Virus record (IMG/VR): IMGVR_UViG_3300025868_000003
Location: 7,340 to 71,339 of that record
Length of the DNA stretch: 64,000 nt
Direction: 5' to 3' (one strand)
Source of the DNA: a virus
Lineage: Duplodnaviria; Caudoviricetes
The notes beneath the pieces are model-generated. The model was not told the DNA's origin, ran no database searches, and saw only the letters and a program-made list of their open reading frames with translations. A program made the position numbers and the translations under genes. How positions within the stretch are numbered: position 1 is the first letter of the stretch; the number at the start of each line of letters is the position of its first letter. This document shows positions 18,041-38,788 of the stretch, one piece after another.

Positions 18041-18889
18041 TTAAGCTGTACAACCTAGGGCTTTTCTAGTAGTTTCTGTTAGGCTAACTATAGCAGGAGC
18101 TTCATTAGTCAGCACCTCAAAGGATGATGATACTAAATTACTACCAAACCCATTAGCCTCTCTATAATTAGGACCCACTATCGAAGCGACGTATCCTGCT
18201 GCAGTACTACCAACTTTATCCTTACCACCATATCCTAGATACGATCCCATGGCTACCAGTAATCTACTATGATTAATATATTCAGTGCCATTAAAAGACC
18301 TGTACCATCTCACACCGTCTTTATATCTAAGCACATTATGCCACTTATCATTCAGGATAATTAACCCAGACATTATTTGGTTAGTTAAGATGTCATCCGT
18401 AAATTCTTTACCATTAACACCCATTACCTTACCTATTGAGTCTCCAGGGTTTATTGTTAACCTCACTGCCCAGGATGCATCAAACCCATACTTCAACACT
18501 AGTCTCTCTATTTCACATTGTGTGGTGGAGCTCCAAGGGGATATTCCCCTAACATGGTTGTAACCCATGCTTTGAGCTAACCCATATGCCTTGGTACATT
18601 CATTAATATTGGCAGTTAAATTTACATCGTTAAGTTTAGTTACCTGTACCACCTTAGGATGTAATAGGAACCTACCGGCTGCATTACCAGGGGTAGTACC
18701 AGAAGTATCTGGACCGGTATTATCTGGATGCATTGAGCTCTCTTTTCTCATTAGAGCCATGAACATATTCTCTAAGTCTGTCTCCTTACTAACCATCCCT
18801 TGGAATCTGCTATTTTTAAGGAGATAGCGTAGTATGTCTCTTATTTTTTCATACTCTCTAGGGCTCTTACCTGGTACTCTAGTAGCCAT
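18041..18889 (-). CDS. Putative lytic transglycosylase/lysozyme-fold protein
   Basis: ALMRKESS (catalytic Glu-Ser), YGLAQ, AMGSYLG; translationally coupled to the beta' C-terminal gene. Confidence 0.5.
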   Translation of the reverse strand: MATRVPGKSPREYEKIRDILRYLLKNSRFQGMVSKETDLENMFMALMRKESSMHPDNTGPDTSGTTPGNAAGRFLLHPKVVQVTKLNDVNLTANINECTKAYGLAQSMGYNHVRGISPWSSTTQCEIERLVLKYGFDASWAVRLTINPGDSIGKVMGVNGKEFTDDILTNQIMSGLIILNDKWHNVLRYKDGVRWYRSFNGTEYINHSRLLVAMGSYLGYGGKDKVGSTAAGYVASIVGPNYREANGFGSNLVSSSFEVLTNEAPAIVSLTETTRKALGCTA

Positions 18890-20718
18890 TAGTATCGCCC
18901 ATGATATCCATCACCGAACTCATTACCTATAAGGAATGGGGTTATAGGGTCTGTACTATGTACATCAGATTCTTGCCCCAGAGCTGCCGCATCCTTTAGG
19001 CTATTTTCTAATTTAGAGAAAGATAACCTAGAGATCCAGTTCTTATCTAACAACTTAGCAGTTTGTAGACCGGGGACCACCGGAGTTATCCTCAGTCTAC
19101 TACCTGTAGTTTTAACCGACTTAACACCTTGGCGATGTAGTTCATCTATGTGATTATCATCCAAGGTAGTACCAGGTGTTAATTCAAATTGGCTACGTGA
19201 TAGCATCTTACCCTTAGCTTGATGTAGGGGGGTGTCCACTTCATCCTGTTGTAGATGCTTAGATATGGAGTTAATAGTAACCTTATCTCCTGGGGTAAAT
19301 CCGGTTTCTCCAGGGCTGTCTACCTGTACGTACTTAACTAGATTACGGGAAATTAACTCGAAGTGTCTAGGATCTAAGCCGCCACCATATATATTCCTTA
19401 GCTCTTCTGCCAAGTATTTACGTCCAGCTCCTATGCCTCTCAAGGAAACTAGTTTCCTAGGGTTAATAACCCCCGTAGATATTGCATATCCCCTCTTTAC
19501 CGCATTCCCTTTCTTTATGGTCAACTGCTGTATTCTAGGAACAAAGTGTTTAACTCCATCTATGAATACGTGATGGTCCTTTAGAGGCGTCAGTATTATA
19601 TCATTAACCTTACCATTGACCTCTGAGATAGTAGCTTCATCCTTGAAGTTCTCTTTAGGGTTGTTAAGAATGTTAGAGGCTTGATCATATATATTACCAC
19701 GACGTTCTCCAACAGTAGCCTTATGTTTAGTTGATAACATAGCTTGTGTAAGAACCTCTGATACTGATTGTGCGGCTATAATACCTACGTTTTCACCTAT
19801 CTCAGGGTTTTTCCCACTACCCATTAGTCCATAACATTTCTTACATACACCCTCGTTAGCCTCACATGTCAATGCGCTGCGGACCACTACCGTAGGGGAG
19901 CGGGACATAGTAAGGTGCTTATAGTACTCCTCGTCTATTACGTGGTTAGTACCGGCTTCGTACCTTCCTAATACAGACTTTTTGTCAGATACCTTTTGGG
20001 TGATACCATTCTTAGTTCCACAGTCATCTACTGTAATAGTCTCATGGAAGACTGTAGGACTTAGGCGTTTAAATAGAGCTCCAGGTAGAGCAGTCGATAG
20101 CTGGGATAGAACCGTAGAACCGCGTCCCATGTAACTCATGGCTAGGTGTTCGGCTGGGGACATACCACTAGCAAAGGAGCTCTTAATTACTAGGGGTATT
20201 AACTCCCCCTTAACGTTTAATGACATAAGTGGAGTAGAGGTACCCGAAGCTAACTGAGCGGGATTACCACGAGCCCCAGTTCTAGCCATCTTAGCAGCGG
20301 TAGACCCCCTACCAGAAAGGTAGTCTAGGTTCTGTTTTTCTATTCGCTTGTTATAGTCGGAAGTTAAACTGCCTAAGCCATCGTTCTTATGGGACTTACT
20401 TCCTGGCCCATGGATTATTTTATTAGCCTTAGTTTCGTATTCCTTAAGGATAGCTGAGCGCTCATCACTTTCATTTATGTAGTCTGATAGGGGGGTAGAG
20501 GCACCTATTTCAGTAGCCTTATTAAAGAACATCTGTCCTAATGTATTTATATGTTCATGGGACTTACTACCACCATGCCTTATAAGCATATTTACCATCC
20601 TAGACATACCCCCCTTATCTAAAGGGGTGTGTATGTCAAATTCCTGTTTAGCCTTTTCGGTAGGCATGGAGTGCTTAATTATAAGGGAGCCAACGGTGGT
20701 TAGTTTAGTATCAGTCAT
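18889..20718 (-). CDS. rpoC: RNA polymerase beta' subunit, C-terminal part
   Basis: TTVG start, GARGN..QL, bridge helix (STALPGALFKRL), DDCGT, VRSALTCEANEGVCKKCYG Zn site, trigger loop AAQSVSEVLTQAMLSTKH, RHFELISR. Confidence 0.93.
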   Translation of the reverse strand: MTDTKLTTVGSLIIKHSMPTEKAKQEFDIHTPLDKGGMSRMVNMLIRHGGSKSHEHINTLGQMFFNKATEIGASTPLSDYINESDERSAILKEYETKANKIIHGPGSKSHKNDGLGSLTSDYNKRIEKQNLDYLSGRGSTAAKMARTGARGNPAQLASGTSTPLMSLNVKGELIPLVIKSSFASGMSPAEHLAMSYMGRGSTVLSQLSTALPGALFKRLSPTVFHETITVDDCGTKNGITQKVSDKKSVLGRYEAGTNHVIDEEYYKHLTMSRSPTVVVRSALTCEANEGVCKKCYGLMGSGKNPEIGENVGIIAAQSVSEVLTQAMLSTKHKATVGERRGNIYDQASNILNNPKENFKDEATISEVNGKVNDIILTPLKDHHVFIDGVKHFVPRIQQLTIKKGNAVKRGYAISTGVINPRKLVSLRGIGAGRKYLAEELRNIYGGGLDPRHFELISRNLVKYVQVDSPGETGFTPGDKVTINSISKHLQQDEVDTPLHQAKGKMLSRSQFELTPGTTLDDNHIDELHRQGVKSVKTTGSRLRITPVVPGLQTAKLLDKNWISRLSFSKLENSLKDAAALGQESDVHSTDPITPFLIGNEFGDGYHGRY

Positions 20719-20801
20719 AGCAGTATTTTAGCTTACCACTATAAATTCCACAAATGCTATTTTTAGGGTATAAGACGGTATACAAGATTTTAATGGAGAA
20801 C

Positions 20802-21035
20802 ATGATGAATGACCAGGTAAGTAATTTAGAACCACATCAACTAAGGGTGGTGCATGAGTTGGAAGAGGTTAAGACCAAGTGGATAGCATTAAATAGTTTT
20901 TTACATACTGAAACTTTCAAATCCCTAGACGTAATAGAGAAATGTTTACTAGTAAGACAGTCAGACATAATGGAAGAATACTGTAGTATCTTAGGACGTA
21001 GGATACAATTATTTACCAGTAAATTGACGGGATAA
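20802..21035 (+). CDS. Small helical phage protein
   Basis: GGAGA ribosome-binding site before ATG 20802; HQLRVVHELEE...Y..IL.RRI pattern. Confidence 0.65.
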   Translation: MMNDQVSNLEPHQLRVVHELEEVKTKWIALNSFLHTETFKSLDVIEKCLLVRQSDIMEEYCSILGRRIQLFTSKLTG

Positions 21036-21038
21036 AGT

Positions 21039-21773
21039 ATGGTTAACTTAGATAAAACGTGGATATGCTCGGATCTCCATTTAAATCACGGGAATATAAT
21101 CAAGTATTGTAATAGACCTTTCAAGTCTGTTAATGATATGAATGAAGAGATAATAAACAGGCATAACTCGGTAGTAGATCCCACTGATACAGTATTCATA
21201 CTCGGAGATTTGGGATGGCCAGATCCCTCTGAGTACGTTAAGAAACTGAATGGAAATAAGATCCTTATCAGAGGGAATCATGATAGTGAAAAGGTAGTAT
21301 CCTCCTTACTGAGGAATAATACTATCATAGGGCCGGTACATGACTATTTTGAGTTGACCCTGAAGGAATACGGGATACTACCGATAGTAATGTGTCACTA
21401 CCCTATAGAGTCCTGGAATCGTAAATACCATGGCGCTATACACTTACATGGTCATACCCACGGTACCTTGGATAACTCAGGATTGATGAGGTTTGACATG
21501 GGTATAGACTGTAACGATTATTATCCATTCAAATTAAAAGATGTACTACGCATGGCTGAAGAGAGGTTAACTGAGCTAGGTGGGAAAGAGGGTATACGAG
21601 GCAACCTGGGAGATAAGGAGACTTATGGGCTGAAAGAGCAGGTACGTCCCATAGCCAGAGACTCTAAAATGCAGGAGTTATATAAATTAGCAGAAGAGGA
21701 TGTAGACAAGTTTCTAGAGGAACATCGTATTTACAAAGAGTTCTACGAATCAAGACAAGTCAATATACCATGA
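21039..21773 (+). CDS. Phage metallophosphoesterase
   Basis: SDLHLNH, ILGD, GNHD, CHYP, HLHGHTH. Confidence 0.9.
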   Translation: MVNLDKTWICSDLHLNHGNIIKYCNRPFKSVNDMNEEIINRHNSVVDPTDTVFILGDLGWPDPSEYVKKLNGNKILIRGNHDSEKVVSSLLRNNTIIGPVHDYFELTLKEYGILPIVMCHYPIESWNRKYHGAIHLHGHTHGTLDNSGLMRFDMGIDCNDYYPFKLKDVLRMAEERLTELGGKEGIRGNLGDKETYGLKEQVRPIARDSKMQELYKLAEEDVDKFLEEHRIYKEFYESRQVNIP

Positions 21774-22127
21774 GCAATCGGTTTTGTGTGGATTCTCGGC
21801 TTCGCATAGTTTATAGTTATTTCCCCATACCGGACTTAATGGAGTCAGGTATATCTTCTGTTCAAAACCGAGTTCTAGAAGCAGTTTTTTCAGGTACGGA
21901 ACTAGCCTACTGAAGTTCCCCCTGCCCCTGCTTAAACTTTTACTGTATAGGTGGGCGTTACCTCTAAACTCCCCTATAGAGTTTAGTATCACACAACCTC
22001 CAGATATAGAGATATCTATTGGTACATCATTAATCCATCCTGTGCCAGGCAGTAATTCTTCATTTTTAAATTGAATACTGCTACCAGAATACTTGGCTAG
22101 ACTTTTTAGGAATTCGGATTCAGTCAT
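21750..22127 (-). CDS. Hypothetical protein, possible GNAT-like fold
   Basis: RGRGNFSRL resembles an acetyl-CoA-binding loop; weak evidence. Confidence 0.4.
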   Translation of the reverse strand: MTESEFLKSLAKYSGSSIQFKNEELLPGTGWINDVPIDISISGGCVILNSIGEFRGNAHLYSKSLSRGRGNFSRLVPYLKKLLLELGFEQKIYLTPLSPVWGNNYKLCEAENPHKTDCSWYIDLS

Positions 22128-22163
22128 TACTATAATTTAGACGAAATTAAGGAGTTATATAGT

Positions 22164-23546
22164 ATGAGCATATTAGACGTAGTGAAAGTACGTGAAGAGA
22201 AAATTTATCCTCCCTTAACTATTGTACCTAGTCTACGGGAAGTATTACATCCCATTAAAGGTAATGTACATGAAGCCACTAGTTACGAGGAGTTTAGCAT
22301 CTGGATGTCAGGAATTAACCGTATAATTAGTAGACAATACTACGAGTTAAAAGACATATGCACCAGGATATCTAGACTAGTATCAGGCTCTAAGATGTTA
22401 CAGGGAGATTTCCAGGTAATGGAAGTAGATAGTCAATATATGGACTTATTTAATTTAAAAATGGTGATGTTTGGATTAAGGGTATCTATCGCCATCAATC
22501 CGGCGGAGGCTACGGAACATATTAGTAATGCTATATCTACCTCTACTAAAGAACAAATTAATACTGTATTTAATCCAACGGGGTTTATCACCAGTAAAAA
22601 AGTGCAGCCCCAGATCAATAATACCCTGTTATACGAAGGTGATTTCTACATACCATTAGTAGATAGTTCTACAAATACTAATGTAGGGTGTGTTCGTATT
22701 AAGGCATACTCAGGCAGATGTATTGTCCCCTATACATCACCGGGAACTATGCTTAGTCCGGAGTCTATATACGGGGGGGGTGCTATAATAGAGGCCCTGA
22801 CGTCCTCATGTATCCCTGTTAAATACGATAAACCCTCTGGGCTACCGTACATTACAGTAGAGGGGTATACAGATATCTCTGATGGAGTAGAGACTATTAA
22901 GAAAACCTTCTTGTCACCGTGGGGACTTAATGATCTAAACGGGGTTCTAGTAACGTCCATACCTAGAACAGTAGCACCTAGTAGTGTCTTAAGGTACCCC
23001 GGGACTACTAATACTATTATAATGATAGTTAAATCATTAAAGTGTTTTACTAAAGAGGAGGGGCTGGATGCGCTATCCTCACTATGCCCTATAAGGAATC
23101 CTTTAGCCCCAGTAATTATGCAAGTTATCAGGGATGGAACTGAAGCAGACTTTAATACTTCAAATTATGCTGCTATAAATAGGTCGGCCATGAGGATGTT
23201 GGCACCGGTTATAGCTAGCATTAAATTAGTTTTCCCTGAGCCAAATTCAACCGAGTTTAAACCAGAGTACTTACCAAAGGGGATTACAAAGAAAGATACT
23301 AAGGATTTCATAGCCAAGTTTCTAACTACTAAGTGCCACGGTATTCCAATAAGAATACTTATAGAGTCGGGGTCCGATGATAAGGTTATAGAAGCCTCTG
23401 AGAAATACTTTGAAGAATTCTTGCTTAATGGAGAAAAGCCTAAGACACCTAAGACGCCTAAGAGAAACATTTCATCAGTTAAGCTTAATCCAGTAAACTT
23501 TTCGGTGGATGGTACTTCAGGACTTCAGGCAACTCGTCAAGTGTAA
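22164..23546 (+). CDS. Hypothetical protein, probably truncated by an 8-bp duplication (restored end 23671)
   Basis: AAGGAG ribosome-binding site; ACTTCAGG duplicated at 23514-23529. Confidence 0.7.
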   Translation: MSILDVVKVREEKIYPPLTIVPSLREVLHPIKGNVHEATSYEEFSIWMSGINRIISRQYYELKDICTRISRLVSGSKMLQGDFQVMEVDSQYMDLFNLKMVMFGLRVSIAINPAEATEHISNAISTSTKEQINTVFNPTGFITSKKVQPQINNTLLYEGDFYIPLVDSSTNTNVGCVRIKAYSGRCIVPYTSPGTMLSPESIYGGGAIIEALTSSCIPVKYDKPSGLPYITVEGYTDISDGVETIKKTFLSPWGLNDLNGVLVTSIPRTVAPSSVLRYPGTTNTIIMIVKSLKCFTKEEGLDALSSLCPIRNPLAPVIMQVIRDGTEADFNTSNYAAINRSAMRMLAPVIASIKLVFPEPNSTEFKPEYLPKGITKKDTKDFIAKFLTTKCHGIPIRILIESGSDDKVIEASEKYFEEFLLNGEKPKTPKTPKRNISSVKLNPVNFSVDGTSGLQATRQV

Positions 23547-23703
23547 CATATGAAGTATCGTCTATTGATCTATCGGCCTCCGCCAGAGCTATCACAGATA
23601 ATGGTGACAGACATAGTACGTATACTATGAACATATCTAACGTCTTTGAGGAGCCTATTAGTATAGCATAACCTGTACTTATGACCAGCGTATCTGCATA
23701 ATT

Positions 23704-23735
23704 AAAACGGGCGCTTTCATAGGCCTGTTTTTTAG
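23704..23735 (+). terminator. Intrinsic terminator
   Basis: AAAACGGGC-loop-GCCTGTTTTTT. Confidence 0.6.
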
Positions 23736-23766
23736 CCTAATCTAGGCTAATGTGGTAAAATAGGAT

Positions 23767-24468
23767 ATGTCCAATTCTACTCAATCTATTCTTTTCACTA
23801 GGCAGCGCCATGACGCTGAACGGGCTGGATTACACTATGACTATAGAATTGTAGTGGGGGATAAAGCTTACTCGTGGGCCACTAAGAGAGAACTTCCAGA
23901 ACCTGGTAAGGCCATAATTCTATGGGAACAACCGGTCCACACCGCAGACTATGCCCTCAGTCAAAGGGTTGAGATTCCTAGTGGCCAATATGGGGCGGGA
24001 ACTACTACCCTTGATTGGATTAAAAAGGGAACTGCAAAGTTCAATGAAGACAAGATTACGGTAGAAACTAAAGGTAGTAAGTTTCTAATCAAGAAAATGC
24101 CCGAACATTATGGGAAGGGTGCGTGGTTATTTAAGAGGGTGGATAGTGTGAGTGAGAATAAGTATTTGGAGAAGATTTCATCTGATCTATCCATCGCATC
24201 TAAGTCTCATGCTGAGGAGACTAAGGCCATACACGATTACACCGAGCTCCTTAAGGATGCTAAATCTCCAGAGCTAAAAAAGGCTATTGAACACGCCCGT
24301 AAGGAGGAGGGGGATCATGCCTCTGATTTCAAGAAGGTTATGAGCAAAGAGGCCGAACTACGAGAAGAGTTAAGGCTGAAGCCTAAACTAAGGGGTAATA
24401 GGTATCTTAAGAAGGCTAAGGCTATTAAGCCTCATAATAATAAAAGTATTATTACTCATAATAAATGA
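23767..24468 (+). CDS. LigD-type 3'-phosphoesterase fused through an NKYLEKIS motif to a half-ferritin-like domain
   Basis: QRHDAERAGLHYDYRI, YSWA, HTADY, IPSGQYGAG (LigD PE motifs); ENKYLEKIS; EETKAIHDY...EEGDH. Confidence 0.85.
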   Translation: MSNSTQSILFTRQRHDAERAGLHYDYRIVVGDKAYSWATKRELPEPGKAIILWEQPVHTADYALSQRVEIPSGQYGAGTTTLDWIKKGTAKFNEDKITVETKGSKFLIKKMPEHYGKGAWLFKRVDSVSENKYLEKISSDLSIASKSHAEETKAIHDYTELLKDAKSPELKKAIEHARKEEGDHASDFKKVMSKEAELREELRLKPKLRGNRYLKKAKAIKPHNNKSIITHNK

Positions 24469-24504
24469 GCATGAGTTTTCCTGATCCAGTGTTAAAATAT
24501 AGTT

Positions 24505-25386
24505 ATGAACTATATTAAAAAACAATTAGACTCTTTATCAGAAGCAGATTTTAAGGACTCATATCTGGTTACGCTGGTGGATGGCAGACAACATACATAC
24601 CTAGGTCAGGATGAGATCCAAATAGTATACCCTGGGTGGAAGGACGGATGGAGGACACTTAAGGTAGCTGAAGTATCCAAATACTTGGAAATGCCTTACA
24701 TGAAATCCAGGTTATACATGCCTCTCCCCAGCCCTAAGGAGTTACCAGAGCAGAAATACTTTATAGACCCTTATCTGTTAGGGGTATTAATAGGGGATGG
24801 CGGTTTAGGATATGGGAGAATGACTATTACTTCTGCTGATGAAGATTTAATACAAAACTGTAATTCCCGCATTCACTTCGGGTTCGAGGTGGTAAAACTT
24901 AGTAGTAAGTACGGGTACGGGTTACGTAGAAATAAAGTAACAGGGTCTAAGGGTAAGCATAATGCTTATACGGATGAAATCAGACGACTAGGTTTAAATG
25001 TTAATTCTGAACTTAAGTTTATACCTGAGAACTACTTAGTTGGATCAATAGAACAGCGTTCATGGTTAATGAAAGGACTTATGGATACCGATGGTACCAT
25101 AGACCTCCAAGGAACTAGCTCTTATTGCTCGACTAGCTATAGGCTAGCATGTGATGTAGTTGAGTTAGCCAGATCCCTCGGACATATAGCATTTATAAGC
25201 GAAAGACACCCATCCTTTACATACCTGGGGGTAAAGAAAAAAGGTAAGACGGCATATCAGGTTAATCTACGGGTTAGAAATCCAAGAAGCCTGTTTAGTA
25301 TATCAAGAAAACTAAGTAGATCCCCGGATAAAAATCAATACTCCGATACTTTAAAATTGCGTATAGAAGACATACAGAGATTATGA
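24505..25386 (+). mobile_element. Free-standing intein-type LAGLIDADG homing endonuclease
   Basis: PYLLGVLIGDG, LMKGLMDTDG, STSYRLACDVVELARSLG; no intein splice-junction residues. Confidence 0.85.
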
Positions 25387-26840
25387 ATAAGTACCTAGTC
25401 AAAATAGCGGGGTCTAAGTCTACACAAACTACTCTAAAACCTCATCAGGAGCGCTCTTTGAGAAAACTGGAGTTAGAAGGAGGTGTCCTACTAGACCACG
25501 GCACAGGTACGGGTAAAACTAAGACCTTTCTTGCAGCCATAGAGCGTGCGCAGAAGAGAGATAAGAAGAACTATGCATTGGCAATAGTTCCAGCCTCTCT
25601 AGTATCCAATATAAATAAAGAGATAAAAAAGCATGGTATGGATATAGATACTAAGCGCCTGCTGGTAACTACCTATAATAAAGCTGTTAATGATGTCGAC
25701 GAATTATCTAATAAGCACTTTTCCATAGCCGTGGCTGATGAGGCCCAGGCTTTGAGAAACCCAACTACCAAACGCCATAAAGCCCTTAGTAAACTTATAA
25801 CAGGGGCTGATCAGCGCCTGCTAGCTACTGCTACCCCTAGGTACAATCATGCTGGTGATCAGGGGCCATTAGTTAATATCGTCGCAGGTAAAAAGGTACT
25901 ACCAGAAGGTAAAGACGCTTTTGAAAAAGAGTTCGTAGTTCGTAAAACAGAACACCCTAATATTCTTAGACGTGTACTCATGGGTGCTACCCCTAAAGAG
26001 ACGGTTGAAATAAAGAATAGCAAGTATCTGGATAAAGTCCTGAATAAATACACCGATCACTACGATGTTAAAAATGATCCTGAACTTCAAAAGCACTTCC
26101 CCACCACTTCGGAGAAGGTGATTGAAGTAGAGATGTCTCCTGAACAGCGTACACTTTACAAGTTTATGGAAGGTAAGCTCCCCTGGGCTATGAAAATGAA
26201 GGTACGTATGGGTATGCCACTAGACAAGCGTGAGAGCCGTGAGTTAAATGCGTTCTCTTCTGGTGTACGTCAGGTATCTAACTCTACTAAACCGCTCCTA
26301 ACCAACTCGTCTCATGTTACTCCTAAAACTATACAGGCAGTAGACAACCTGCATAAAGCCATAAAATCGGATAAGAATTTTAGAGGAGTGGTATACTCTA
26401 ATTTCTTAGAATCTGGGTTACGAGATTACTCTGAAGAACTGACTAAACGTAATATTTCACATGCTATATTCCATGGAGGATTAAGTGCGAAGCAGAAGGA
26501 TGAAATTAAGGATGCATATAATGGCGGCAAGATCAAGGCGATGCTCGTTTCTAGCTCTGGAGCGGAAGGCTTAGACTTAAAAGGTACTAAACTCATGCAG
26601 ATACTTGAGCCTCATTTTAATCAGTCAAAAATAGATCAGGTAGTAGGTAGGGCGGCTAGATATGAATCTCATACTCATCTACCAAAAAGTGAGCGCCATG
26701 TAAACATAGAGCATTACCACTCCATACTACCTAAGGGGTTTATGGGAAATAGGCCGCATAGTATTGATCAATATCTCTATCATAACTCTCAGACTAAAGA
26801 CGACCTTAATGAGAAGATAAAAGCATTGCTCCATGACTAG
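25383..26840 (+). CDS. SNF2-like SF2 helicase/translocase with NKYLVKIA leader
   Basis: HGTGTGKT, DEAQ, ATATP, SGAEGLDL, QVVGRAAR; starts MNKYLVKIA. Confidence 0.88.
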   Translation: MNKYLVKIAGSKSTQTTLKPHQERSLRKLELEGGVLLDHGTGTGKTKTFLAAIERAQKRDKKNYALAIVPASLVSNINKEIKKHGMDIDTKRLLVTTYNKAVNDVDELSNKHFSIAVADEAQALRNPTTKRHKALSKLITGADQRLLATATPRYNHAGDQGPLVNIVAGKKVLPEGKDAFEKEFVVRKTEHPNILRRVLMGATPKETVEIKNSKYLDKVLNKYTDHYDVKNDPELQKHFPTTSEKVIEVEMSPEQRTLYKFMEGKLPWAMKMKVRMGMPLDKRESRELNAFSSGVRQVSNSTKPLLTNSSHVTPKTIQAVDNLHKAIKSDKNFRGVVYSNFLESGLRDYSEELTKRNISHAIFHGGLSAKQKDEIKDAYNGGKIKAMLVSSSGAEGLDLKGTKLMQILEPHFNQSKIDQVVGRAARYESHTHLPKSERHVNIEHYHSILPKGFMGNRPHSIDQYLYHNSQTKDDLNEKIKALLHD

Positions 26841-26853
26841 TCATAAATAGTTA

Positions 26854-26878
26854 ATTAATTACCCTCTATTTGGTATAA
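26854..26878 (+). promoter_or_regulatory. ATTAA-N12-TGGTATAA promoter
   Basis: Exact consensus match upstream of 26922. Confidence 0.65.
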
Positions 26879-26921
26879 GTATCTTGTAAGGATATCCCTT
26901 ACATAACCAAAGGAGACAATC

Positions 26922-27200: not shown

Positions 27201-27265
27201 CTACTAAACTATAGGGGTGTGAAACTACATCCCTCAGTTTAACTTACACACAACAGGAAAACGTC

Positions 27266-27751: not shown

Positions 27752-27810
27752 TAGTAACTACAACAACACCCCGGACATCAGGGTGTTTTTTTAATTAAGA
27801 CAGGATAACG

Positions 27811-30765: not shown

Positions 30766-31903
30766 TAGGCGTATTTTCTCTTATTAACCCCTTTTTATAT
30801 GCAGATATAGCCTCTTCCTCTGTTTTAAAATTAACTGTCTTCTGAGTAGTATCAGGTTCAGTCATGTATACCGATCCAATCACTGCTTCATGTCCTGGGG
30901 TAACCATTGAATTATTAAGCCCTTTACGATAGTCATGGATATGGTGCTCAGGTAATAACTTAGCTTTAGCCTCTTCCACGGCTCCTGGAGTCATTGGCAC
31001 AAATACACTCAATGCGTCACCATCGTAGTCGCCTGCGTATAGAGGCAAGTGTAAAGGGTTAATCCCAATTGTTTTCCCCTTGATAGGAACGGGATAATGG
31101 GCAGTAATGTTAGTCCTCATCAAGGTAGGTGCCCGGTTTAGAATAACGGGCACTTGCTTAATTACTTTGTTAAAGGCATTAATCGCTGCTGGGCTACGAC
31201 TATCTATGGCTTTCTTAGCACTGACGTAGTCGAATCCCTGCTTAACTAAGCTTCTAAGAATATGGAACTCATACATTGTCCATAACATATCCTCAGGTAT
31301 AGCAGCCTCGTTAAATCCCAGGTTAGGTTCAGCATAGATGGTAGCCCTACCGGAGAAGTCTTGTTTCTTACTTAGAATTTTACTATGGAAGAACCCACCT
31401 TTAGGCCCAGAGTCTCCACTTATTTGATGCAAGAAACCCTTAAGTTGTTTGCCACGACTAGATCCGGTGATAGCTGGACCTAATCCCATAACAGCCTTAG
31501 CGCCCTCGTATAGGGCCTTACGCTCGTTAATTAGTTGGTCGTTAGGCAACATATCCTTAACGTCCTTCAACGAGTTGTTGACCAGCATATGATCCCTGTA
31601 TAAGGTATTAACGTCTGCATACTCTATACGGTTACCTCCCATAGGTATTACAGGCCTGGATATAGGTGGAATAACTGGCATATTTCTCAAGATGTATGCA
31701 TTCTCAGCCTTTATCCCCATCCTGTTTAAACCGTCCAGGTATTTCACCTTTTTAATTAGGTTGTCTTTTTTAGATACAGAGCGAGTACCGGGTAGGGCAT
31801 CTTTTATACTTTTAATCTGTTTACTAACGTCAACGTCAGTAAGCATGTGTATCAATGCTTCACCACCAGATAGTAAGTCTTCTGTATTAATTTTATTAGT
31901 CAT
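30752..31903 (-). CDS. rpoC: RNA polymerase beta' subunit, catalytic middle part
   Basis: PVIPPISRP, SKKQDFSGRATI, LNRAPTL, AGDYDGD (counterpart of NADFDGD), PGHEAVIGSVYMT. Confidence 0.93.
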   Translation of the reverse strand: MTNKINTEDLLSGGEALIHMLTDVDVSKQIKSIKDALPGTRSVSKKDNLIKKVKYLDGLNRMGIKAENAYILRNMPVIPPISRPVIPMGGNRIEYADVNTLYRDHMLVNNSLKDVKDMLPNDQLINERKALYEGAKAVMGLGPAITGSSRGKQLKGFLHQISGDSGPKGGFFHSKILSKKQDFSGRATIYAEPNLGFNEAAIPEDMLWTMYEFHILRSLVKQGFDYVSAKKAIDSRSPAAINAFNKVIKQVPVILNRAPTLMRTNITAHYPVPIKGKTIGINPLHLPLYAGDYDGDALSVFVPMTPGAVEEAKAKLLPEHHIHDYRKGLNNSMVTPGHEAVIGSVYMTEPDTTQKTVNFKTEEEAISAYKKGLIRENTPIKIG

Positions 31904-31907
31904 GTGT

Positions 31908-32096
31908 TTATTTTAGCTTTAAGAAGTTAACTGCTGATAGCAGGCCCTTCACCCACTCCCCTATAGAGCCAGAAGAAACTATGTTAGTCTTGGGTCTATT
32001 CCATACAGCATCAGCAATCTCTTCTGCAGATGGTATCACAATTGCACTTAAATCTCCAGTAACAACTGGGACTGTGGTTTGTACTGTATTAACTGT
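31908..32096 (-). pseudogene. Start-less C-terminal fragment of a structural gene
   Basis: 63-codon open frame TVNTVQ...AEEIADAVWNRP...FLKLK* with no start codon. Confidence 0.55.
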
Positions 32097-32802
32097 CGCA
32101 AGCTGCGCCGAAACCTATAGTCATCAACCCTTTCCACTGATAACCCCCTTGGACGCCTTGTATCAATCCCCATCTTGCAGTTTGAGCATCATTAGCAGTA
32201 GCAAATCCAGCGAATGTTGCATATCCATTAGCTAAGTCTCCTCCAGAGAATCTAGCTTCTGCTCTACCATAACGAATCATATCAACAACGTGTGGTTGTC
32301 CTTTAGCCACAGCTTGCGTTAGCTGACAGATACTGCCTACACCATATACGTTGGTTCCTCCTGTAGGGGGTGTGCCGTTTGATGTGTCTGCCGTTATAGT
32401 TGGGTCAACTGGATTATTCGCCCATTTACCGTAAGGGAAGGGGGGAACGTCATATCCGCCAACGGTATATCCTTTCCAGTTAGCTAAGGAAGACCCTAAT
32501 ATAGCTACTTGTAAACCGTTATTTGCATAAGCTTGTAACGCCGTCGCAACACCGTGACCGTGCCACACTAAGAATACTTGTCCTGTTGTAAGAGTAACCG
32601 GTGTGCCTAATATACGAGCTATACCGCAAGCACCAGTTGTATTCGTAGCTTGGGAAGTGGTATTAGTACCCTGAAGAGCAGACTCAGTATCTGCTTCATC
32701 TGGTAAAGCACCTGCGTTAGCTCCAGTTAACTCACCCCATGCAGCTGTGTCATTATCCGCAATCCAGTCAGTTAAGTCATGGGTGTATATTGGAGCAGCC
32801 AT
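32089..32802 (-). CDS. Putative virion/tail-associated protein, apparently C-terminally truncated
   Basis: Thr/Gly/Ala-rich; stops abruptly at GAACDS where the orphan fragment begins. Confidence 0.55.
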   Translation of the reverse strand: MAAPIYTHDLTDWIADNDTAAWGELTGANAGALPDEADTESALQGTNTTSQATNTTGACGIARILGTPVTLTTGQVFLVWHGHGVATALQAYANNGLQVAILGSSLANWKGYTVGGYDVPPFPYGKWANNPVDPTITADTSNGTPPTGGTNVYGVGSICQLTQAVAKGQPHVVDMIRYGRAEARFSGGDLANGYATFAGFATANDAQTARWGLIQGVQGGYQWKGLMTIGFGAACDS

Positions 32803-32803
32803 A

Positions 32804-33187
32804 TTATGCTAGGATTTCTGCTACACGAGCATTTGTGATTAGTCCTATCATTGCGCAGTAACCCACTAACATCTGTGTGAGCATATCTGCAACATCTATG
32901 AACTCTGCCGCCTGTATAAGGGCCAGTCCTTGCTGGATATTTATATCAGTAGAAGTGGTAGCTGCAGCCCATTCTATTGCTGTAAATCGTAGAATAAAGT
33001 CTACACGTGATAGCTTCTGCTGAACAGTCTGCACCCAGCTTTGATTAATAAAGTCCCAGGTATTAAATTTCAAGTCAGGGATATCCGTATCATACTTAAA
33101 TATAGTATACCCTTCAGTAGATTTGAAGTTAGAGTCTATTGTGGAAACACCGAACCAATTATCCTTTGTTATCACCCAGTAAGTCAT
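32804..33187 (-). CDS. Hypothetical protein, possibly tail-fibre assembly-like
   Basis: 127 aa; WDFINQSW then a helical RVAEIL C-terminus; coupled to its neighbours. Confidence 0.5.
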   Translation of the reverse strand: MTYWVITKDNWFGVSTIDSNFKSTEGYTIFKYDTDIPDLKFNTWDFINQSWVQTVQQKLSRVDFILRFTAIEWAAATTSTDINIQQGLALIQAAEFIDVADMLTQMLVGYCAMIGLITNARVAEILA

Positions 33188-33468
33188 TATCTGTTTATCC
33201 TCCTCTGTTCTAACAACATTTGACGGATCAGCTGTTGAGTTTCTTTTTGTTCATCTAACATTAGCTTTGTACGTTCATTTAACGTAGCCTGCCCCTCTTT
33301 TAGTTGAATGATTTCCTGTTGTACTATAGCTTGAGATTTGACGTTATCTTCTAATGACTGAATTTTAGTAGTATTCTCAGCCTAGGCCATACCAGATACT
33401 ACTAGGAATGAGCCTATAAACCAGTACTCCTTTAACCACTTTAAAACTGCTTCTTTTTCAATTGCCAT
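33187..33468 (-). pseudogene. Membrane-anchored coiled-coil protein interrupted by an in-frame TAG
   Basis: MAIEKEAVLKWLKEYWFIGSFLVVSGMA*AENTTKIQ...RRINR; TAG at 33382-33384; the final TAA overlaps the next ATG. Confidence 0.7.
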
Positions 33469-33477
33469 AATCCCGCC

Positions 33478-33570
33478 TTAAATCCTAGCCCCACAGTTAA
33501 AGCATCTCCTGTTATTACCTGTGTATTGCCAAACTTTACAGGTGCTACATTGAATTTGAACTAATAACAT
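33478..33570 (-). CDS. 30-aa Zn-ribbon peptide
   Basis: MLLVQIQCSTCKVWQYTGNNRRCFNCGARI; fills the gap between its neighbours. Confidence 0.5.
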   Translation of the reverse strand: MLLVQIQCSTCKVWQYTGNNRRCFNCGARI

Positions 33571-33573
33571 ATC

Positions 33574-33951
33574 TTACACATACGTCAATGACGCCCTATT
33601 ATTCCATATCTGATTAAACTCTGCAAGCCCCGCCCACAGCTGAGTTATTTCACCGTTTACATCCGTTAAGACCTTCTGAATCTGCCATACCGCTGCACTA
33701 GTAGCTGAACCCGGGACTGCTCTACCTACATATGCTACTGAGTAGGAGACTACATCGGAGAGCCCCTCCGTAACTACACCACCTCCTCCGGTGGCACCCG
33801 TCCCTACTACTACCCAGGTACCACCATCCCAATATAAAGGTTTACCCTCAGAGGTAGACCATATAAAGCAGTTAGTACCTGGGTCTGGTGTAGTTTGCCC
33901 TTCTGATATGGCTAAGGAGGGTAACCCCCTATAGGATAGATCCTTGCGCAT
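33574..33951 (-). CDS. Hypothetical virion-associated protein
   Basis: YWDGGTW; YVGRAVPGS..AVWQIQK..W..RASLTY pattern typical of phage fibre-associated modules. Confidence 0.55.
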   Translation of the reverse strand: MRKDLSYRGLPSLAISEGQTTPDPGTNCFIWSTSEGKPLYWDGGTWVVVGTGATGGGGVVTEGLSDVVSYSVAYVGRAVPGSATSAAVWQIQKVLTDVNGEITQLWAGLAEFNQIWNNRASLTYV

Positions 33952-33956
33952 TATCC

Positions 33957-34896
33957 CTACCCTATTACTACAACTCTAATGGTGCTAGCTCCAGGTGGTA
34001 CTGCAAATCCTATAGTTACTGTATTAGAGCCGGATATAGTAACATCAGCATCTACGACGGTGTTAGTAGCTATATCCCTCAGAGAGGTTATAATGTCTAC
34101 ATTACCCAACCCATGAGTAACTACGATACTGGTCGATAGGCCATCCCCAATAGTGGTGGCGTATTTCCTGGCTACAACCGTAGTATCTATTTTTAGCCCA
34201 GTACCAGAGGTTATTAGTCCTGAACCAGTATCCAACTTAACGCTGAAAGTAGCACCAGTAAGGTCAAGTCCATTACCGGCACTATACGCAGATGCAGCAC
34301 CAAATTGAACAATGATAATACTGGTAGTACCGATAAGTATAGTACCGGTATTATTACATCTCCACTGGGTACGTTGATACGTTGTACCCTCTTCTACAAA
34401 CCAAAAGGCTCCTGACGTTATAGTATCGGCAGAATCAGTAGGCCTAGTCCAGGAACCAGAAGAGGCAATCCACGTTCCATTTTGGGTAGCATTAGTTTGA
34501 CCAGTCAGTAAAACCCTGTCGTTGGCTACGAGGGTGACACCGTCTATAGCCAGTGAAGGTAACGTTTCCTATCGGGGCAGCGAACTCATTTAGAGCATAG
34601 CCTTTTACTACTGTAGCTAAGTCACTTACAGTTGATGCCGGTTGAGTACCTGTATGATTACTTCTGTTAAGTGGGTTAACAGACAGCTTAGTTATAGGGA
34701 TATACCCGTCAGGGACTTTAGCCGCATCTAGTATAATCCAAGTAGCTCCATTATATATCTTGATAGCTTCAGAAGATGTATCCCAATAAGGCATACCGGG
34801 CAGTGGTGATCCTGGTGCTGTACCCAGGTTCTGTAGCCTAAAGTTGAGTAACTCATTTTTAGTTAGATCAACGGAGGTTAAAAATTTACGACTCAT
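33957..34896 (-). pseudogene. Fibre/decoration-like gene split by a frameshifting deletion near 34546
   Basis: Frame [12 protein letters not shown]...NVTFTGY; frame B open from 34568 to 33957 ([34 protein letters not shown]) with no upstream start. Confidence 0.7.
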
Positions 34897-34905
34897 GGTT
34901 ATTCC

Positions 34906-35391
34906 TTAATTAAGTATTGCTTGCCCGCTAAAGGCATACGAAAAAGTAACTACTATATTGTTTACATCTACATACTGTATGTCACCCTCTACTACTGTAC
35001 CTGCTGAATCTACAATAGTTATGGAAGGCATCTTGTTCAAATTATGTGTTAAAGACCAGCTAGTAGAGGGTACCGGTTGGTTATATACGAAATTAGAATC
35101 TACTCCAGGTATCCCCTGAGGACCTTGAGTACCCATCTCCCCCTGAGGACCGGCCGGACCTGTAGCCCCATTATCCCCCGGGTCCCCCTTAGCTCCGGTA
35201 GCCCCCTTGGGGCCTATACGTATATCTACCTGAGCCCTAGGACTAAGCTTCTCTACTGGTACGTTTACTACGGGCGACGGAGGTGAACTCACTGAAGGTG
35301 AGAGACTTTGTATAGGAGATGGTATTACGGCAGGCTGACTGCCTACACCAACGCTATAATTACTATCCGAGTTACTGACCGTTATGCCCAT
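34906..35391 (-). CDS. Collagen-repeat virion protein
   Basis: About 12 G-X-Y triplets, then WSLTHNLNKMPSITIVDSAG. Confidence 0.75.
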   Translation of the reverse strand: MGITVSNSDSNYSVGVGSQPAVIPSPIQSLSPSVSSPPSPVVNVPVEKLSPRAQVDIRIGPKGATGAKGDPGDNGATGPAGPQGEMGTQGPQGIPGVDSNFVYNQPVPSTSWSLTHNLNKMPSITIVDSAGTVVEGDIQYVDVNNIVVTFSYAFSGQAILN

Positions 35392-35428
35392 TGCACTATT
35401 TTAATGCAATGGACATATTACTAGGAGG

Positions 35429-38400
35429 TTAGTGTTTGTTTATGTCAATGGTCTTAATTAGAGTACCCGACAGAATATCATGTAGGTGGAATTTACCGTC
35501 AGATACCCTTTTAATACCTATAGACCCACTTGATATACCATTAAATTCCCCCGTAGTCAATCCTAGTATTGACTTAATAGGGCGCTCAAATACCGGATTA
35601 GCTATAGGTTCTGCAAGACTATAGTGATTCCACCTAGTACCTCTAAGTCCTCCGGTTAGGGAGGCGTCAAATAACCCCCCCTTATCAGCATCCAGGTTTT
35701 TAGCGTTAAGCATTAATGGCTCTCTGATTTCACTATGAGATATAGCCATGATGTCCTTATCTGTTAATGGAGAAGCAGTTAATTTACCGTCCCTTACAGA
35801 TGTCTTAATACCGGATGCCGTCAAGTAGTCAAGGAATTTCTTAGTAGCAAACGTAGTATTTGGCTTTGGTAACGGTTGACCAGTTACGAACTTAGACCAG
35901 TATTCTGAGCTATCCTCAGACTTTACCGTAGCAATATCTTTTAGATTCTTACGGGCATCAGAACCCAGTAGACCTAGCATCTCCATGTAACCAACACTCT
36001 TACTACCAGTATCCCCACCTTTAGTAGGCTGCAACACATTATCATACCCGCCTACATTACGTGCTGACCAGTTCTGGTCAGAAGTTTTGTATAGTTTGAT
36101 AAAGTACTGGGGTCCGGTCAATACCTTGGATAGCTCCTTACCGGTCTTAGGATCGATGAATGTCTCCGAATCAGAGATACCTTTCTTCTTCAATTCTGCG
36201 TTAAGTTCACCTATGTTAGACGCCTTAGAGAAATTATGTACTAAGTAGGGTTTACCCTCTTTCTTGGCAATTTTACCAGCCATAGTCTCCATAAGCTGAC
36301 CTAGGTTAACTCGGGATGTAACCGAGGCTGGGTTCAGCAGAATATCCACAGGTTTACCAGTAGACTTATTAAATGGCATTTCATTATCATCTAGTACTAA
36401 GGATACAATACCCTTGTTACCGTGCATACCTGTCAGTTTATCCCCAACCTCTAGATGTTTAATAGAGCGTATCAATAGTCTGAAGTCTTTACCCTCAGTG
36501 TGAGAATCAACTATGATACCGTTCTCTTCATGGTTCCATACTTCAGTTACCGCACGATAAGGGTTAACTAAAGTCTTATGAAGTCTACCCAGCATCTTAT
36601 CCTCTGGGGTAGGCTCTCGTTTCTCTAGAACTACATATACAGGGTCACCATGATGTAACGTAACTCCTACTTTAGCAAACCCCATATCATCAAGATTGTC
36701 CAGTTGACTTTTAGTGAACTTACCCGGGAAGTACCTATTGATCATAGATTTTTTAAGCATAGAGATAGGCTGGACTGAATAATCTACTTTATAAGCGTGG
36801 TGGCTAGATAGGCCTTCCGCACAAGATTTGCTTATTACCAGACCATCTTCGTGGTTGTATCCCTTATATGGTAGATATGCTACTTCCAGGTTCTTACCCA
36901 AAGCCAACTTACCATTCCTAGTATAGTTATTCTCAAATAACGGGTGACCGGCCTTAACCTTATCCCCTACCTTATATAGTGAGTGCTCATCGTCAAAGAA
37001 CCCCTTCATATTAAAAGGTAGGTTCTTAACTCCTGAAAATTTATAGGTAACCCCGTCTACCCCCTTAAGTTCTATGTTAGTACCGTGTAACTTAGTTACT
37101 GTAGCATTAACGGGGGAGAAATTTTGGGTTATTACCTTACCTATTTCTTCGACAAAAGAGGTTCCTTTTCTAGCAGTCTGCACTAAGGGCTCTTCCCTAT
37201 CTACTAAGGATAGTGCTTGAGGGATAGCTTTACCAGCCATGGTTAAGCGACCTGGGTGGTTACTATTAAGAAATGGGACCAGGTTGGTAGTAATGGTGTA
37301 CATACTGGAGGAATCATCTACCCAGTACTGTACTTTATCAACGGTAGTTTCCCCTAGCTCCCCACGTATCTGTGCCTGTACTTTTCTCTTACCCTCCTGG
37401 TGTGGAAATCCTATAACAGAATCCATCATCTCATGTACAGATAAGTACACATGCTTACCCTTTCGGTCTATAACCTTAGAGTACATGTTACCATCCCTAT
37501 CACGCATAGCTGTAATAGTGAACCTTTGATCAATACCAGCATGACTAGATTCGGGGGTACGGCTAGGGTCTATAATCCCTAAGTGAGATGGATCAATATC
37601 TCTGGCGGCCATAGGCACTCCCCTCTCAGAGGTAATACCTCCCTCTAATCCGCCCAGTACAGTTACTTTGGCTACATTCTCTAGACTCTCCACAGGATTA
37701 GTTTCAGATGGTGTAGACACTAGATTACTATCTAAGATATAGCTGGAAAACACTTTATTAAAAGGCTTACTTGGGATTATATTCTTAATCTTAGGAGCCT
37801 TACCCTCACGGTCAGACTTATCAAAGGAATATGTAATACGGCTCTTAAGGTTACCCATAAGTAACTTCTCTTTTTTAAATCTAGTCGCTATAAAGTCTGG
37901 TAAATTCTGCACAGACTTAAATTGTAGTGAGTCCCTATTGTCTTCTTTCTTTACTCCGGAGTGTATGTCTACTAGGTTCTTCATAGAACGAAGAATAGCT
38001 TCATGAGTTACTGATGAAATAGCCTTACCAAGAGTAACTATAGTAGTAGATACATTAAGCTGAGAGCTCTCCAAGGCAAGCCTTAAGGCCGCTATTTTTT
38101 CAGATTCAGTAGCTGTAGGGGACTGCTTACTAGTCATCTTACGGTAAAGATCATTTATAACCTTAGACTCTTTTCCAGCACTAGCGCGTAAGTTATCATC
38201 CCAAACAGAGTCGGGCACATACATACCTACTTCTTTACGATTGATATTGAATACTCTATCCAGTAGAGGGGCTAATAGAATCTTAGATGATTCTACCTCT
38301 AAGTAGAAAAGGCCAGATTGCGGTTCCAGGGTTATATGAAAACTTCTACCGGTACCAGTGTTAAAGTGGGACTCCAGCTCTCCATTCTCCCTACTACGAG

Positions 38401-38788
38401 TATATACCCCGGGACGCAGCTGTAACTGATTAGACACAGAGTAGTTATTACCCTTGTACATAAGAGTATGTTTACCAGTAAGGTAGAACGAGTCCAGTAG
38501 GGAGAAGTCTCTGTGACTATCCAGAACTTTACCAGTGGCTTTATCAAGTAACTCTAAATCCCCTTTTACCGGGTAGTTCAGTGACTTAGATTTAAGGATA
38601 GCGTCCTTCTCGTCCTTATGAGTAAACTCTTTACGTTCAGCTCTAACATTTTTAAGGGTGATAATGTAGTTCTTAGTTTCCATGGGAAACTGAGATAATA
38701 CCCCTTCAATAAGGGATTCATCCACCCTATCATTAATAACTTTAGGGGTTGAGAATATACCCTGTAGTTCCTGTTCTAACTTAGGCAT
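35429..38788 (-). CDS. rpoB: RNA polymerase beta subunit fused to the first segment of beta'
   Basis: RDIDPSHLGIIDP..TPES, GKNLEVAYLPYKGYNHEDG, GDKLTGMHGNKG, DILLNP..SRVNLGQ, GPQYFIKL; then SPLTDKDI..GGLFD..LAEPIANP (beta' N-terminus). Confidence 0.95.
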   Translation of the reverse strand: MPKLEQELQGIFSTPKVINDRVDESLIEGVLSQFPMETKNYIITLKNVRAERKEFTHKDEKDAILKSKSLNYPVKGDLELLDKATGKVLDSHRDFSLLDSFYLTGKHTLMYKGNNYSVSNQLQLRPGVYTRSRENGELESHFNTGTGRSFHITLEPQSGLFYLEVESSKILLAPLLDRVFNINRKEVGMYVPDSVWDDNLRASAGKESKVINDLYRKMTSKQSPTATESEKIAALRLALESSQLNVSTTIVTLGKAISSVTHEAILRSMKNLVDIHSGVKKEDNRDSLQFKSVQNLPDFIATRFKKEKLLMGNLKSRITYSFDKSDREGKAPKIKNIIPSKPFNKVFSSYILDSNLVSTPSETNPVESLENVAKVTVLGGLEGGITSERGVPMAARDIDPSHLGIIDPSRTPESSHAGIDQRFTITAMRDRDGNMYSKVIDRKGKHVYLSVHEMMDSVIGFPHQEGKRKVQAQIRGELGETTVDKVQYWVDDSSSMYTITTNLVPFLNSNHPGRLTMAGKAIPQALSLVDREEPLVQTARKGTSFVEEIGKVITQNFSPVNATVTKLHGTNIELKGVDGVTYKFSGVKNLPFNMKGFFDDEHSLYKVGDKVKAGHPLFENNYTRNGKLALGKNLEVAYLPYKGYNHEDGLVISKSCAEGLSSHHAYKVDYSVQPISMLKKSMINRYFPGKFTKSQLDNLDDMGFAKVGVTLHHGDPVYVVLEKREPTPEDKMLGRLHKTLVNPYRAVTEVWNHEENGIIVDSHTEGKDFRLLIRSIKHLEVGDKLTGMHGNKGIVSLVLDDNEMPFNKSTGKPVDILLNPASVTSRVNLGQLMETMAGKIAKKEGKPYLVHNFSKASNIGELNAELKKKGISDSETFIDPKTGKELSKVLTGPQYFIKLYKTSDQNWSARNVGGYDNVLQPTKGGDTGSKSVGYMEMLGLLGSDARKNLKDIATVKSEDSSEYWSKFVTGQPLPKPNTTFATKKFLDYLTASGIKTSVRDGKLTASPLTDKDIMAISHSEIREPLMLNAKNLDADKGGLFDASLTGGLRGTRWNHYSLAEPIANPVFERPIKSILGLTTGEFNGISSGSIGIKRVSDGKFHLHDILSGTLIKTIDINKH

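Follow-up and report, generated by a model that had tools for sequence, protein, structure and literature searches.

The subject of this analysis is a multisubunit RNA polymerase (RNAP) encoded within 64,000 nucleotides of a tailed-phage genome (Caudoviricetes), positions 7,340 to 71,339 of the IMG/VR record IMGVR_UViG_3300025868_000003. This whole stretch, referred to here as the window, is part of a 71-kb record with an estimated completeness of 39%. An earlier reading of the bare sequence (the original prediction) had proposed that a cellular-type RNAP is re-cut at this locus into three collinear genes. Sequence comparison confirms the three genes, all on the minus strand, as together encoding one predicted bacterial-type RNAP core. 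The break between chains A and B is designated fission site 1, and that between chains B and C site 2.

35429..38788, minus strand: RNAP chain A (P0001), 1119 aa; complete beta (residues ~1-1005) and, in frame, the start of beta'
35432..35776, minus strand: beta' N-terminal stub inside chain A, residues ~1005-1119, ending at fission site 1
30752..31903, minus strand: RNAP chain B (P0002), 383 aa; beta' ~E. coli 177-550, which includes the clamp coiled-coil and the DYDGD catalytic loop
18889..20718, minus strand: RNAP chain C (P0003), 609 aa; C-terminal half of beta', with the second zinc site

Residues 77-988 of chain A align with full-length cyanobacterial beta (E = 2e-67), Pfam recognises Rpb2 domains 3 and 6 (PF00562, E = 1.4e-57, and PF04565), and the active-site motif GDKLTGMHGNKG is present with its GDK...HGNKG segment. 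Past the end of beta the frame continues into KGGLFDASLTGGLRGTRWNHYSLAEPIANPVF, which has zero cysteines. Chain B aligns with Bacillus subtilis beta' 170-538 and E. coli beta' 177-547 (E ~1e-51) and matches Rpb1 domains 1 and 2 in Pfam; its catalytic loop YAGDYDGD has the three aspartates of the NADFDGD type, and D292, D294, G295 and D296 are invariant across 16 family members. For chain C the aligned regions are B. subtilis beta' 610-1157 and E. coli beta' 723-943, and the cysteines of the second zinc site are retained in DDCGT and LTCEANEGVCKKCYG. Chain A ends in DINKH; chain B begins MTNKIN, 3525 nt further on, and ends PIKIG; chain C begins MTDTKLTTVG after another 10,033 nt. The original prediction had described this layout accurately: a beta subunit running on into the cysteine-free start of beta' (put there at about 100 aa, and found here to be a stub of ~115 aa), a catalytic piece about 3.5 kb away ending PIKIG and a last piece some 10 kb beyond it. 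Its broader claim, a cellular-type RNAP with non-canonical subunit boundaries, is borne out by the alignments and the intact motifs.

The stub was characterised with a profile built from chain A residues 1000-1119 and 11 relatives (12 members) and searched against the PDB. All 76 matches are beta' chains, hit at their N-termini. Profile positions 12-49 correspond to residues 16-53 of Taq beta' and positions 53-90 to residues 89-130; the alignment skips Taq 54-88, and this 35-residue segment, the Cys4 zinc ribbon, is therefore replaced by 3 residues in the stub. No cysteines occur at the place of the N-terminal Cys4 zinc-binding domain in any of 14 aligned family members, and judging from these alignments the loss of the ribbon is a family-wide trait and not peculiar to the window phage.

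Alignments of chains B and C locate the two cuts. Thermus beta' has a large, non-conserved, lineage-specific insertion. Residue 9 of chain B is equivalent to E. coli beta' 177 and Thermus beta' 453 (162 in the insertion-deleted Taq construct), and by alignment site 1 therefore lies just past the Thermus insertion point, in a variable loop that is predicted to be a permissive surface position. Around site 2, chain B aligns with cyanobacterial gamma 187-549 of 624, its end falling at about gamma residue 558, and residues 32-335 of chain C align with cyanobacterial beta' 13-343, chain C starting ~20 residues before the cyanobacterial subunit does. Site 2 is, on this evidence, near the cyanobacterial gamma/beta' boundary but upstream of it, not identical. 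The ends of the PHROG profiles place the division of phiKZ-type beta' into N- and C-terminal subunits in roughly the site-2 region, an approximate position.

Order of fusion and fission

The window shares its gene order, inverted, with Salmonella phage Arash (180.8 kb); the two have in common the portal, beta, beta', structural proteins and the major capsid protein at 33-55% identity for the shared proteins; the Vibrio phages D69, D148 and D181 resemble it similarly. By gene content and order it comes from an Arash-like myophage of ~180 kb, whose relatives are recognisable at the protein level only, a megablast search of positions 30000-39000 against phage records having given no match. The window belongs to what we define here as the Arash-like RNAP lineage, in which the RNAP genes lie downstream of the portal gene, beta and the beta' N-terminus are in frame and the zinc ribbon is deleted.

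Chains A and B of the window form one open reading frame (ORF) in Arash (gp206, 1525 aa) and in D69 (1527 aa), and in D69 the two RNAP genes are only ~640 nt apart. Residues 1-1116 of chain A and 1-383 of chain B map to consecutive stretches of the Arash protein, three codons apart. Relative to Arash no sequence has been lost at the break, which consists of a clean stop and a clean start within a loop of variable length and poor conservation. The cut itself is common to seven independent contigs from different samples, and all contigs with at least 60% identity to chain B (P2) have it. Related records are given L numbers here. In L007 and L010 chain A is 1137 aa long with its own stop, and chain B follows as an ORF of its own (390 or 383 aa); L008 has the same junction and a chain B of 390 aa, its chain A being cut by the contig end. 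Only 69 nt separate A and B in L007 and L008, and 232 nt do so in L010; the spacer is 8.2 kb in L006, >3.8 kb in L005 and >10 kb in L009 and L011.

Other relatives are uncut at site 1. Fused A+B forms of 1451-1462 aa occur in L012, L013 and L015, and that of L014 reaches 1805 aa owing to an in-frame LAGLIDADG insert. Single-chain ORFs comprising beta and the whole of beta' (2062-2124 aa) were found via P0054 in 11 IMG/VR contigs, 10 of which have a detectable portal homologue upstream. A search of chain B against 1.84 billion representative proteins gave >1300 matches at E <= 1e-30, a count that includes bacterial beta'; among the best 150 (E <= 1.8e-53) many are ~1450-1530 or ~2000-2100 aa long and match at about residues 1080-1460. 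Stand-alone matches of 383-488 aa (P0012, P0014, P0055, P0067) lie on contigs of 1.3-1.8 kb and were dropped as probable truncations. The single-ORF arrangement was also seen on contigs assigned to metagenome-assembled genomes (MAGs) of Phycisphaerae (L042), Thermoguttaceae (L063) and Aenigmatarchaeota (L046), and these three, together with L035 from a proteobacterial MAG, are contigs of 4-200 kb that carry phage-type fused RNAP genes. They are probably mis-binned phage contigs and are therefore not evidence of hosts.

The concatenated phylogeny that the original prediction had called for places these forms in order. Segments of beta, mid-beta' and C-terminal beta' were aligned by tblastn and joined for 27 phage rows and 16 bacterial rpoBC loci (43 rows, 1317 columns), and the tree was inferred under LG+G4 with a careful search and rooted on the 16 bacterial loci. 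The phage family is monophyletic (support 100/100), and the seven three-piece rows form one clade (100/100) nested among fused forms, with Arash plus D69 as its sister (100/100). Branching outward from there are L012-L015 (99/98) and then L034 plus L063 (87/57), and the single-chain forms make up a weakly supported clade (83/80). If all phage rows with an intact site 1 are constrained to group without the three-piece clade, the log-likelihood falls by 205.6 units (approximately unbiased, AU, test, p = 1.35e-6). The tree has several long branches and uses the single matrix LG+G4, and the group submitted to the AU test was named after the tree had been seen, though it is defined by architecture.

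Since the three-piece clade is nested within site-1-intact forms and the AU test rejects the alternative, the site-1 cut is a single derived fission, clade-wide. A beta' stub joined to beta can have arisen only via a fused intermediate, whatever the tree, and a fused gene that is cut at site 1 leaves the stub on beta. The chain alignments and the tree together show boundaries that arose by fusion and then fission, with the stub staying on beta. An intact beta' in relatives had been named in the original prediction as the sign of an assembly artefact; an intact beta' does exist in distant relatives, but the artefact does not follow, as seven contigs share the cut and the tree makes it derived. 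What is new is an architectural variant, site-1 fission after beta-beta' fusion, in a poorly described lineage of phage RNAPs. Cutting at site 1 may even be recurrent, judging from P0028 (977 aa; four members, all of that length) and P0050 (1384 aa), which have a Met start within a few residues of site 1 and extend through the C-terminus of beta', a hint at similar events in other sub-lineages. The P0028 locus was not found in scans of viral and metagenome contigs.

Partner subunits, expression signals and probable packaging

No alpha (PF01000, PF01193) or omega (PF01192) was detected at E <= 1 in the record from which the window is taken, nor in Arash, D69 and a 100%-complete relative of 184.9 kb, with positive controls in 14/14 genomes; a divergent protein may nevertheless fill their role. 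The earlier failure to recognise either subunit in the window thus extends to three complete relatives, each of which (Arash, D69 and the 184.9-kb contig) has exactly one beta barrel and one beta' barrel. The features around chain A and the candidate specificity factor are as follows.

39077..40873, minus strand: portal protein gene, by PHROG portal match; 46% identical to Arash gp204
38781..39077, minus strand: gene of a conserved 98-aa protein, overlapping the portal stop at one end and the beta start at the other
5156-6049: major capsid protein homologue
52555..53361, minus strand: sigma-70-family factor with Pfam Sigma70_r2 and r4 (regions 2 and 4); homologue of Arash gp196
31901..31915, minus strand: TAAAAT-N6-ATG at the start of chain B, no Shine-Dalgarno sequence; the same element in L005 and L009
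20716..20730, minus strand: TAAAAT-N6-ATG at the start of chain C; GCTAAAATA in L005, L007 and L010, TTTAAAATA in L011

The portal and capsid genes place the RNAP genes between portal and head genes, where the original prediction had put them. Portal homologues also precede the RNAP ORF, at distances of 0.3-3 kb, in L007, L010, L012-L015 and L023-L033. The 98-aa protein has homologues in Arash (gp205), D69, L007 and L010; in L007 its gene stays beside the portal gene, but another ORF intervenes before beta. It has no match in Pfam, PHROG or the Atlas, its Atlas model has a predicted local distance difference test score (pLDDT) of 0.36, and its Arash homologue is not listed in the virion proteome table. 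A role as RNAP subunit is not claimed for it, Pfam, PHROG and Atlas giving no signal.

The factor at 52555..53361 is, by its domains, the likely specificity subunit of the phage core. The beta' clamp coiled-coil binds sigma in bacterial RNAP, and at the level of sequence this element is conserved; sigma-70 genes are present, and each of the five related records that were searched gave a region 2 match. In the window, which is part of a genome, no homologue was found of Gp10, the sigma factor detected in Arash virions. In the beta alignment the rifampicin pocket carries the substitutions Q513S, D516S, H526N and S531T (E. coli numbering), which would predict insensitivity to the drug.

The putatively late motif that the original prediction had noticed on both beta' pieces is enriched as well as conserved. 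TAAAAT-N5/6-ATG occurs at 9 sites in the window where 2.0 are expected, and 0/100 shuffles reach 9; one of these motifs lies at the first gene of the cassette in the A-B gap. No Shine-Dalgarno sequence is present at the TAAAAT starts, and leaderless units are therefore plausible. Chain A is without the motif and overlaps the 98-aa gene, which itself overlaps the portal gene. This portal-p98-beta unit (38788-40920, minus strand) is preceded by GGTATAATA, an extended -10-like element, and is likewise without TAAAAT; by these signals chain A may be under another type of promoter than chains B and C.

For the fate of the enzyme the cultured relative is informative. In purified Arash virions Gp206 has the highest count of all proteins (3516 spectra), and Gp216 (1210), the sigma factor Gp10 (467) and the SNF2 protein Gp217 (1148) were also detected (PMC10585845). 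Per residue, by our own calculation, the spectral counts are similar to that of the portal protein. That the homologues of the window's RNAP are among the most-detected virion proteins lends support to the probable packaging advanced in the original prediction.

Taken as a whole, the explanation to which we assign a probability of roughly 0.8 is a three-chain bacterial-type RNAP without alpha and omega that arose by fusion and then fission, is packaged and uses sigma. Chains A, B and C would assemble without covalent links, as the split beta' of cyanobacteria does, and the beta-beta' tether, kept as the stub, would stand in for the alpha-dimer assembly scaffold. Transcription of each beta' piece would be driven by a TAAAAT element of its own, lying 6 nt ahead of the ATG, and would give leaderless mRNAs, and phage sigma-70-type factors would direct the phage enzyme. 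Packed in the head and injected, it would start early transcription independently of the host RNAP and would probably be insensitive to rifampicin.

Several points weigh against parts of this explanation. The Arash proteome lists 116/252 proteins, ribonucleotide reductases among them, and its authors warn of co-purification of enzymes (PMC10585845). The RNAP chains are without the NKYLEKIA-type N-terminal tag that ten window ORFs carry, including the SNF2 helicase. The three-chain form comes from metagenomic sequence, and its packaging is argued by analogy from the Arash homologues. Use of sigma by the phage enzyme, and not by the host RNAP, is likewise deduced from sequence, and no sigma was found in five contigs of more distantly related phages (four single-chain and the two-piece L034), these being only 29-67% complete. 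As for the order of events, either the full fusion or the two-piece form may have been the ancestor, the nodes that bear on the choice having support of 83/80 and 87/57.

Some of these points are what would be expected if the three-chain polymerase were unpackaged and made after infection for middle or late transcription, the host RNAP with phage sigmas carrying out the early phase. The missing tag, which other putative head cargo carries, and the evident non-structural enzymes on the Arash virion list would fit such a scheme, as would the TGGTATAAT-like extended -10 element, not TAAAAT, ahead of the portal-p98-beta unit. We consider it unlikely: Gp206 is the most-detected protein of Arash virions, Gp216 and sigma Gp10 are abundant there too, the RNAP genes stand beside the portal gene inside the structural module throughout the family, and there is one RNAP set per genome.

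Integrity of the break and cargo in the gaps

Between the window and L005, the proportion of nonsynonymous differences (pN) is 0.068 for chain B and 0.059 for chain C; that of synonymous differences (pS) is ~0.75, synonymous sites being saturated. The resulting pN/pS of ~0.08-0.09 indicates strong purifying selection on the RNAP pieces.

Selfish elements are frequent in the RNAP genes of this family, as the group I intron in D181 and the in-frame LAGLIDADG inserts of L014, L031 and L034 attest, and pieces A and B could in principle be rejoined by RNA splicing or a split intein, the working enzyme keeping the two-chain form of Arash. The evidence makes this very improbable. An Rfam scan of positions 18000-41000 found no RNA family, group I introns included, at E <= 1, and an intron at the A-B gap was dropped as a candidate; the intron in the D181 beta gene, as a positive contrast, was readily detected at 100.7 bits. 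A split intein was rejected: chain A aligns with the fused Arash protein over all but its last 3 residues and chain B aligns from its very start, so that intein halves would have no space. The 69-nt spacer of L007 has stops in all frames and a hairpin followed by a T-run, and chain B owns an ATG and a promoter-like motif. Least probable of all is that the layout is an assembly chimera or a set of decaying pseudogenes, as a metagenomic contig of 39% completeness with broken ORFs in its inserted cassette might suggest, given the same cut in seven independent contigs of different samples, the clean stop and start, the intact catalytic motifs and the pN/pS of ~0.08-0.09.

The selfish elements merit description in their own right. 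In D181 the fused beta-beta'N gene is broken at about residue 510 (L003:15533-15813 and 15827-16444) by a group I intron (RF00028) that encodes an I-HmuI-like HNH homing endonuclease and is absent from the close relative D69. In-frame LAGLIDADG inserts of 328-416 aa sit in the beta part of L014 (8066-9049), L031 (10347-11366) and L034 (10725-11972); by their sequence they are probably inteins, and two of the three occupy the same position (chain A residue ~786-789) in distant relatives. L031 also has in-frame TGA codons at 8178 and 8544, in the conserved N-terminal region of beta, within an ORF of ~2360 codons that is otherwise open, and it yields few long ORFs when translated with table 11; TGA may be a sense codon in this phage.

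The gaps between the three genes are occupied as follows.

31904..35428, minus strand: site-1 cargo; collagen-like and fibre/decoration-like ORFs, some of them fragments (Pfam Collagen; PHROG fibre/head-decoration)
20754..30765, plus strand: divergent B-C block; metallophosphoesterase, LigD-phosphoesterase/EncFtn-like, LAGLIDADG, SNF2, ligase-like and HNH genes (Pfam, PHROG)
23767-24468, plus strand: LigD 3'-phosphoesterase and EncFtn/rubrerythrin-like ORF with an internal NKYLEKIS motif
24505-25386, plus strand: free-standing LAGLIDADG endonuclease, overlapping the start of the SNF2 gene
25383-26840, plus strand: SNF2 helicase, NKYLVKIA at residues 2-9; homologue of Arash Gp217
28840-30765, plus strand: free-standing HNH homing endonuclease, 641-aa HNH/Mom-like, converging on the end of chain B with a 14-nt overlap

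The site-1 gap, from 69 nt to >10 kb in length, became a landing place for cargo genes. In the window the cargo has a GC content of 0.434-0.437 against ~0.40-0.41 in the flanks; genes homologous to it fill the corresponding gap of L006 and L011 and are absent from that of L007 and L010. Two of its ORFs (34492-34896 and 33957-34235, minus strand) match the N-terminal third and the C-terminal quarter of phrog_8309, and the pieces at 33957-34896 look like one fibre/decoration gene broken by frameshifts.

The divergent block is a recurrent feature of the clade, homologues of the ligase-like and LigD-phosphoesterase genes being found in the same place and orientation in L006-L011. LigD-phosphoesterase homologues were also seen between the RNAP genes of L012-L015. 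SNF2 homologues lie between chains B and C in L005, L010 and L011, L005 being without the ligase. For the HNH gene, L009 has a homologue at the equivalent position and L005 a remnant; the HNH and LAGLIDADG endonucleases are variable additions to the block. In Arash the SNF2 gene (Gp217) adjoins beta'C and its product is abundant in virions, which recalls the linkage of SNF2 and RNAP genes in phiKZ-like phages, for which a RapA-like role has been proposed (PMC7824862).

Comparison with known polymerases

The closest relatives of the window's enzyme are the RNAPs of Arash (gp206 and gp216) and of D69, D148 and D181, which belong to the same lineage at 50-53% identity and have in common with it the portal-p98-RNAP synteny, the loss of the zinc ribbon, the split at site 2 and the sigma genes. 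They differ in having A and B joined in a single chain of 1525-1527 aa, whereas the clade of the window has the extra fission at site 1 and large cargo blocks. The Arash publication annotates gp206 merely as 'subunit beta' and leaves the fusion unmentioned (PMC10585845); among the literature searched it alone touches on this lineage. Arash and the Vibrio phages D69, D148 and D181 are in culture, which makes the two-chain form accessible to experiment; the three-chain form is metagenomic so far.

Among cellular enzymes, the split beta' of cyanobacteria and plastids (gamma/rpoC1 and beta'/rpoC2) demonstrates a working RNAP with a two-chain beta', and site 2 falls in the same inter-domain region. 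The phage cut is placed some tens of residues upstream of the cyanobacterial one, and site 1 is without cellular counterpart. The gene fusion, too, has a parallel in Helicobacter and Wolbachia, where rpoB and rpoC are naturally fused in one reading frame at the canonical boundary. There alpha, omega and the zinc ribbon are retained and no re-cutting is known, whereas the phage family has a short junction, no alpha or omega and a beta' that is re-cut at one or two sites. The phage enzymes bear on how an RNAP core can be assembled without the alpha scaffold, on which loops of beta' tolerate chain breaks (site 1 coinciding with the Thermus insertion point) and on how gene fission opens landing sites for cargo and selfish elements.

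A bolder generalisation, to which we would give somewhat less than even odds, is that Arash-like phages and their uncultivated relatives constitute a large unrecognised lineage of rpoBC-derived RNAPs in which fusion would replace alpha-dependent assembly, and which would be sigma-70-using, virion-borne and repeatedly re-cut at permissive loops. If true, the family would amount to a natural chart of the places at which an RNAP can be split.

The original prediction had drawn its comparison with phiKZ-like phages, and as a functional likeness this stands. The RNAPs of phiKZ-like phages (Chimalliviridae) and AR9 are likewise phage-encoded enzymes of the double-psi beta-barrel (DPBB) type without alpha or omega; one enzyme is packaged, the RNAP genes are linked to an SNF2 helicase, and beta' is divided downstream of the catalytic barrel, close to where site 2 falls (PMC7824862). 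As a statement of lineage it does not hold. The phiKZ/AR9 enzymes are far more divergent and are defined by a beta in two to three chains, a beta' in two, two paralogous sets and the lack of sigma-70 (PMC7824862, PMC13282480); in the lineage of the window an unsplit beta is joined to beta', each genome has a single set, sigma-70 genes with region 2 are present, and the match to bacterial beta (E = 2e-67) puts the enzyme much closer to bacterial RNAP. According to the reviews, jumbo phages that bear an RNAP are without sigma and those that bear sigma are without an RNAP, the former supplying a highly fragmented enzyme, as in phiKZ and AR9, and the latter relying on the host RNAP (PMC7824862, PMC13282480). 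The present lineage fits neither strategy, having a near-bacterial core without alpha or omega, its own sigma-70-type genes, and beta and beta' fused and then re-cut.

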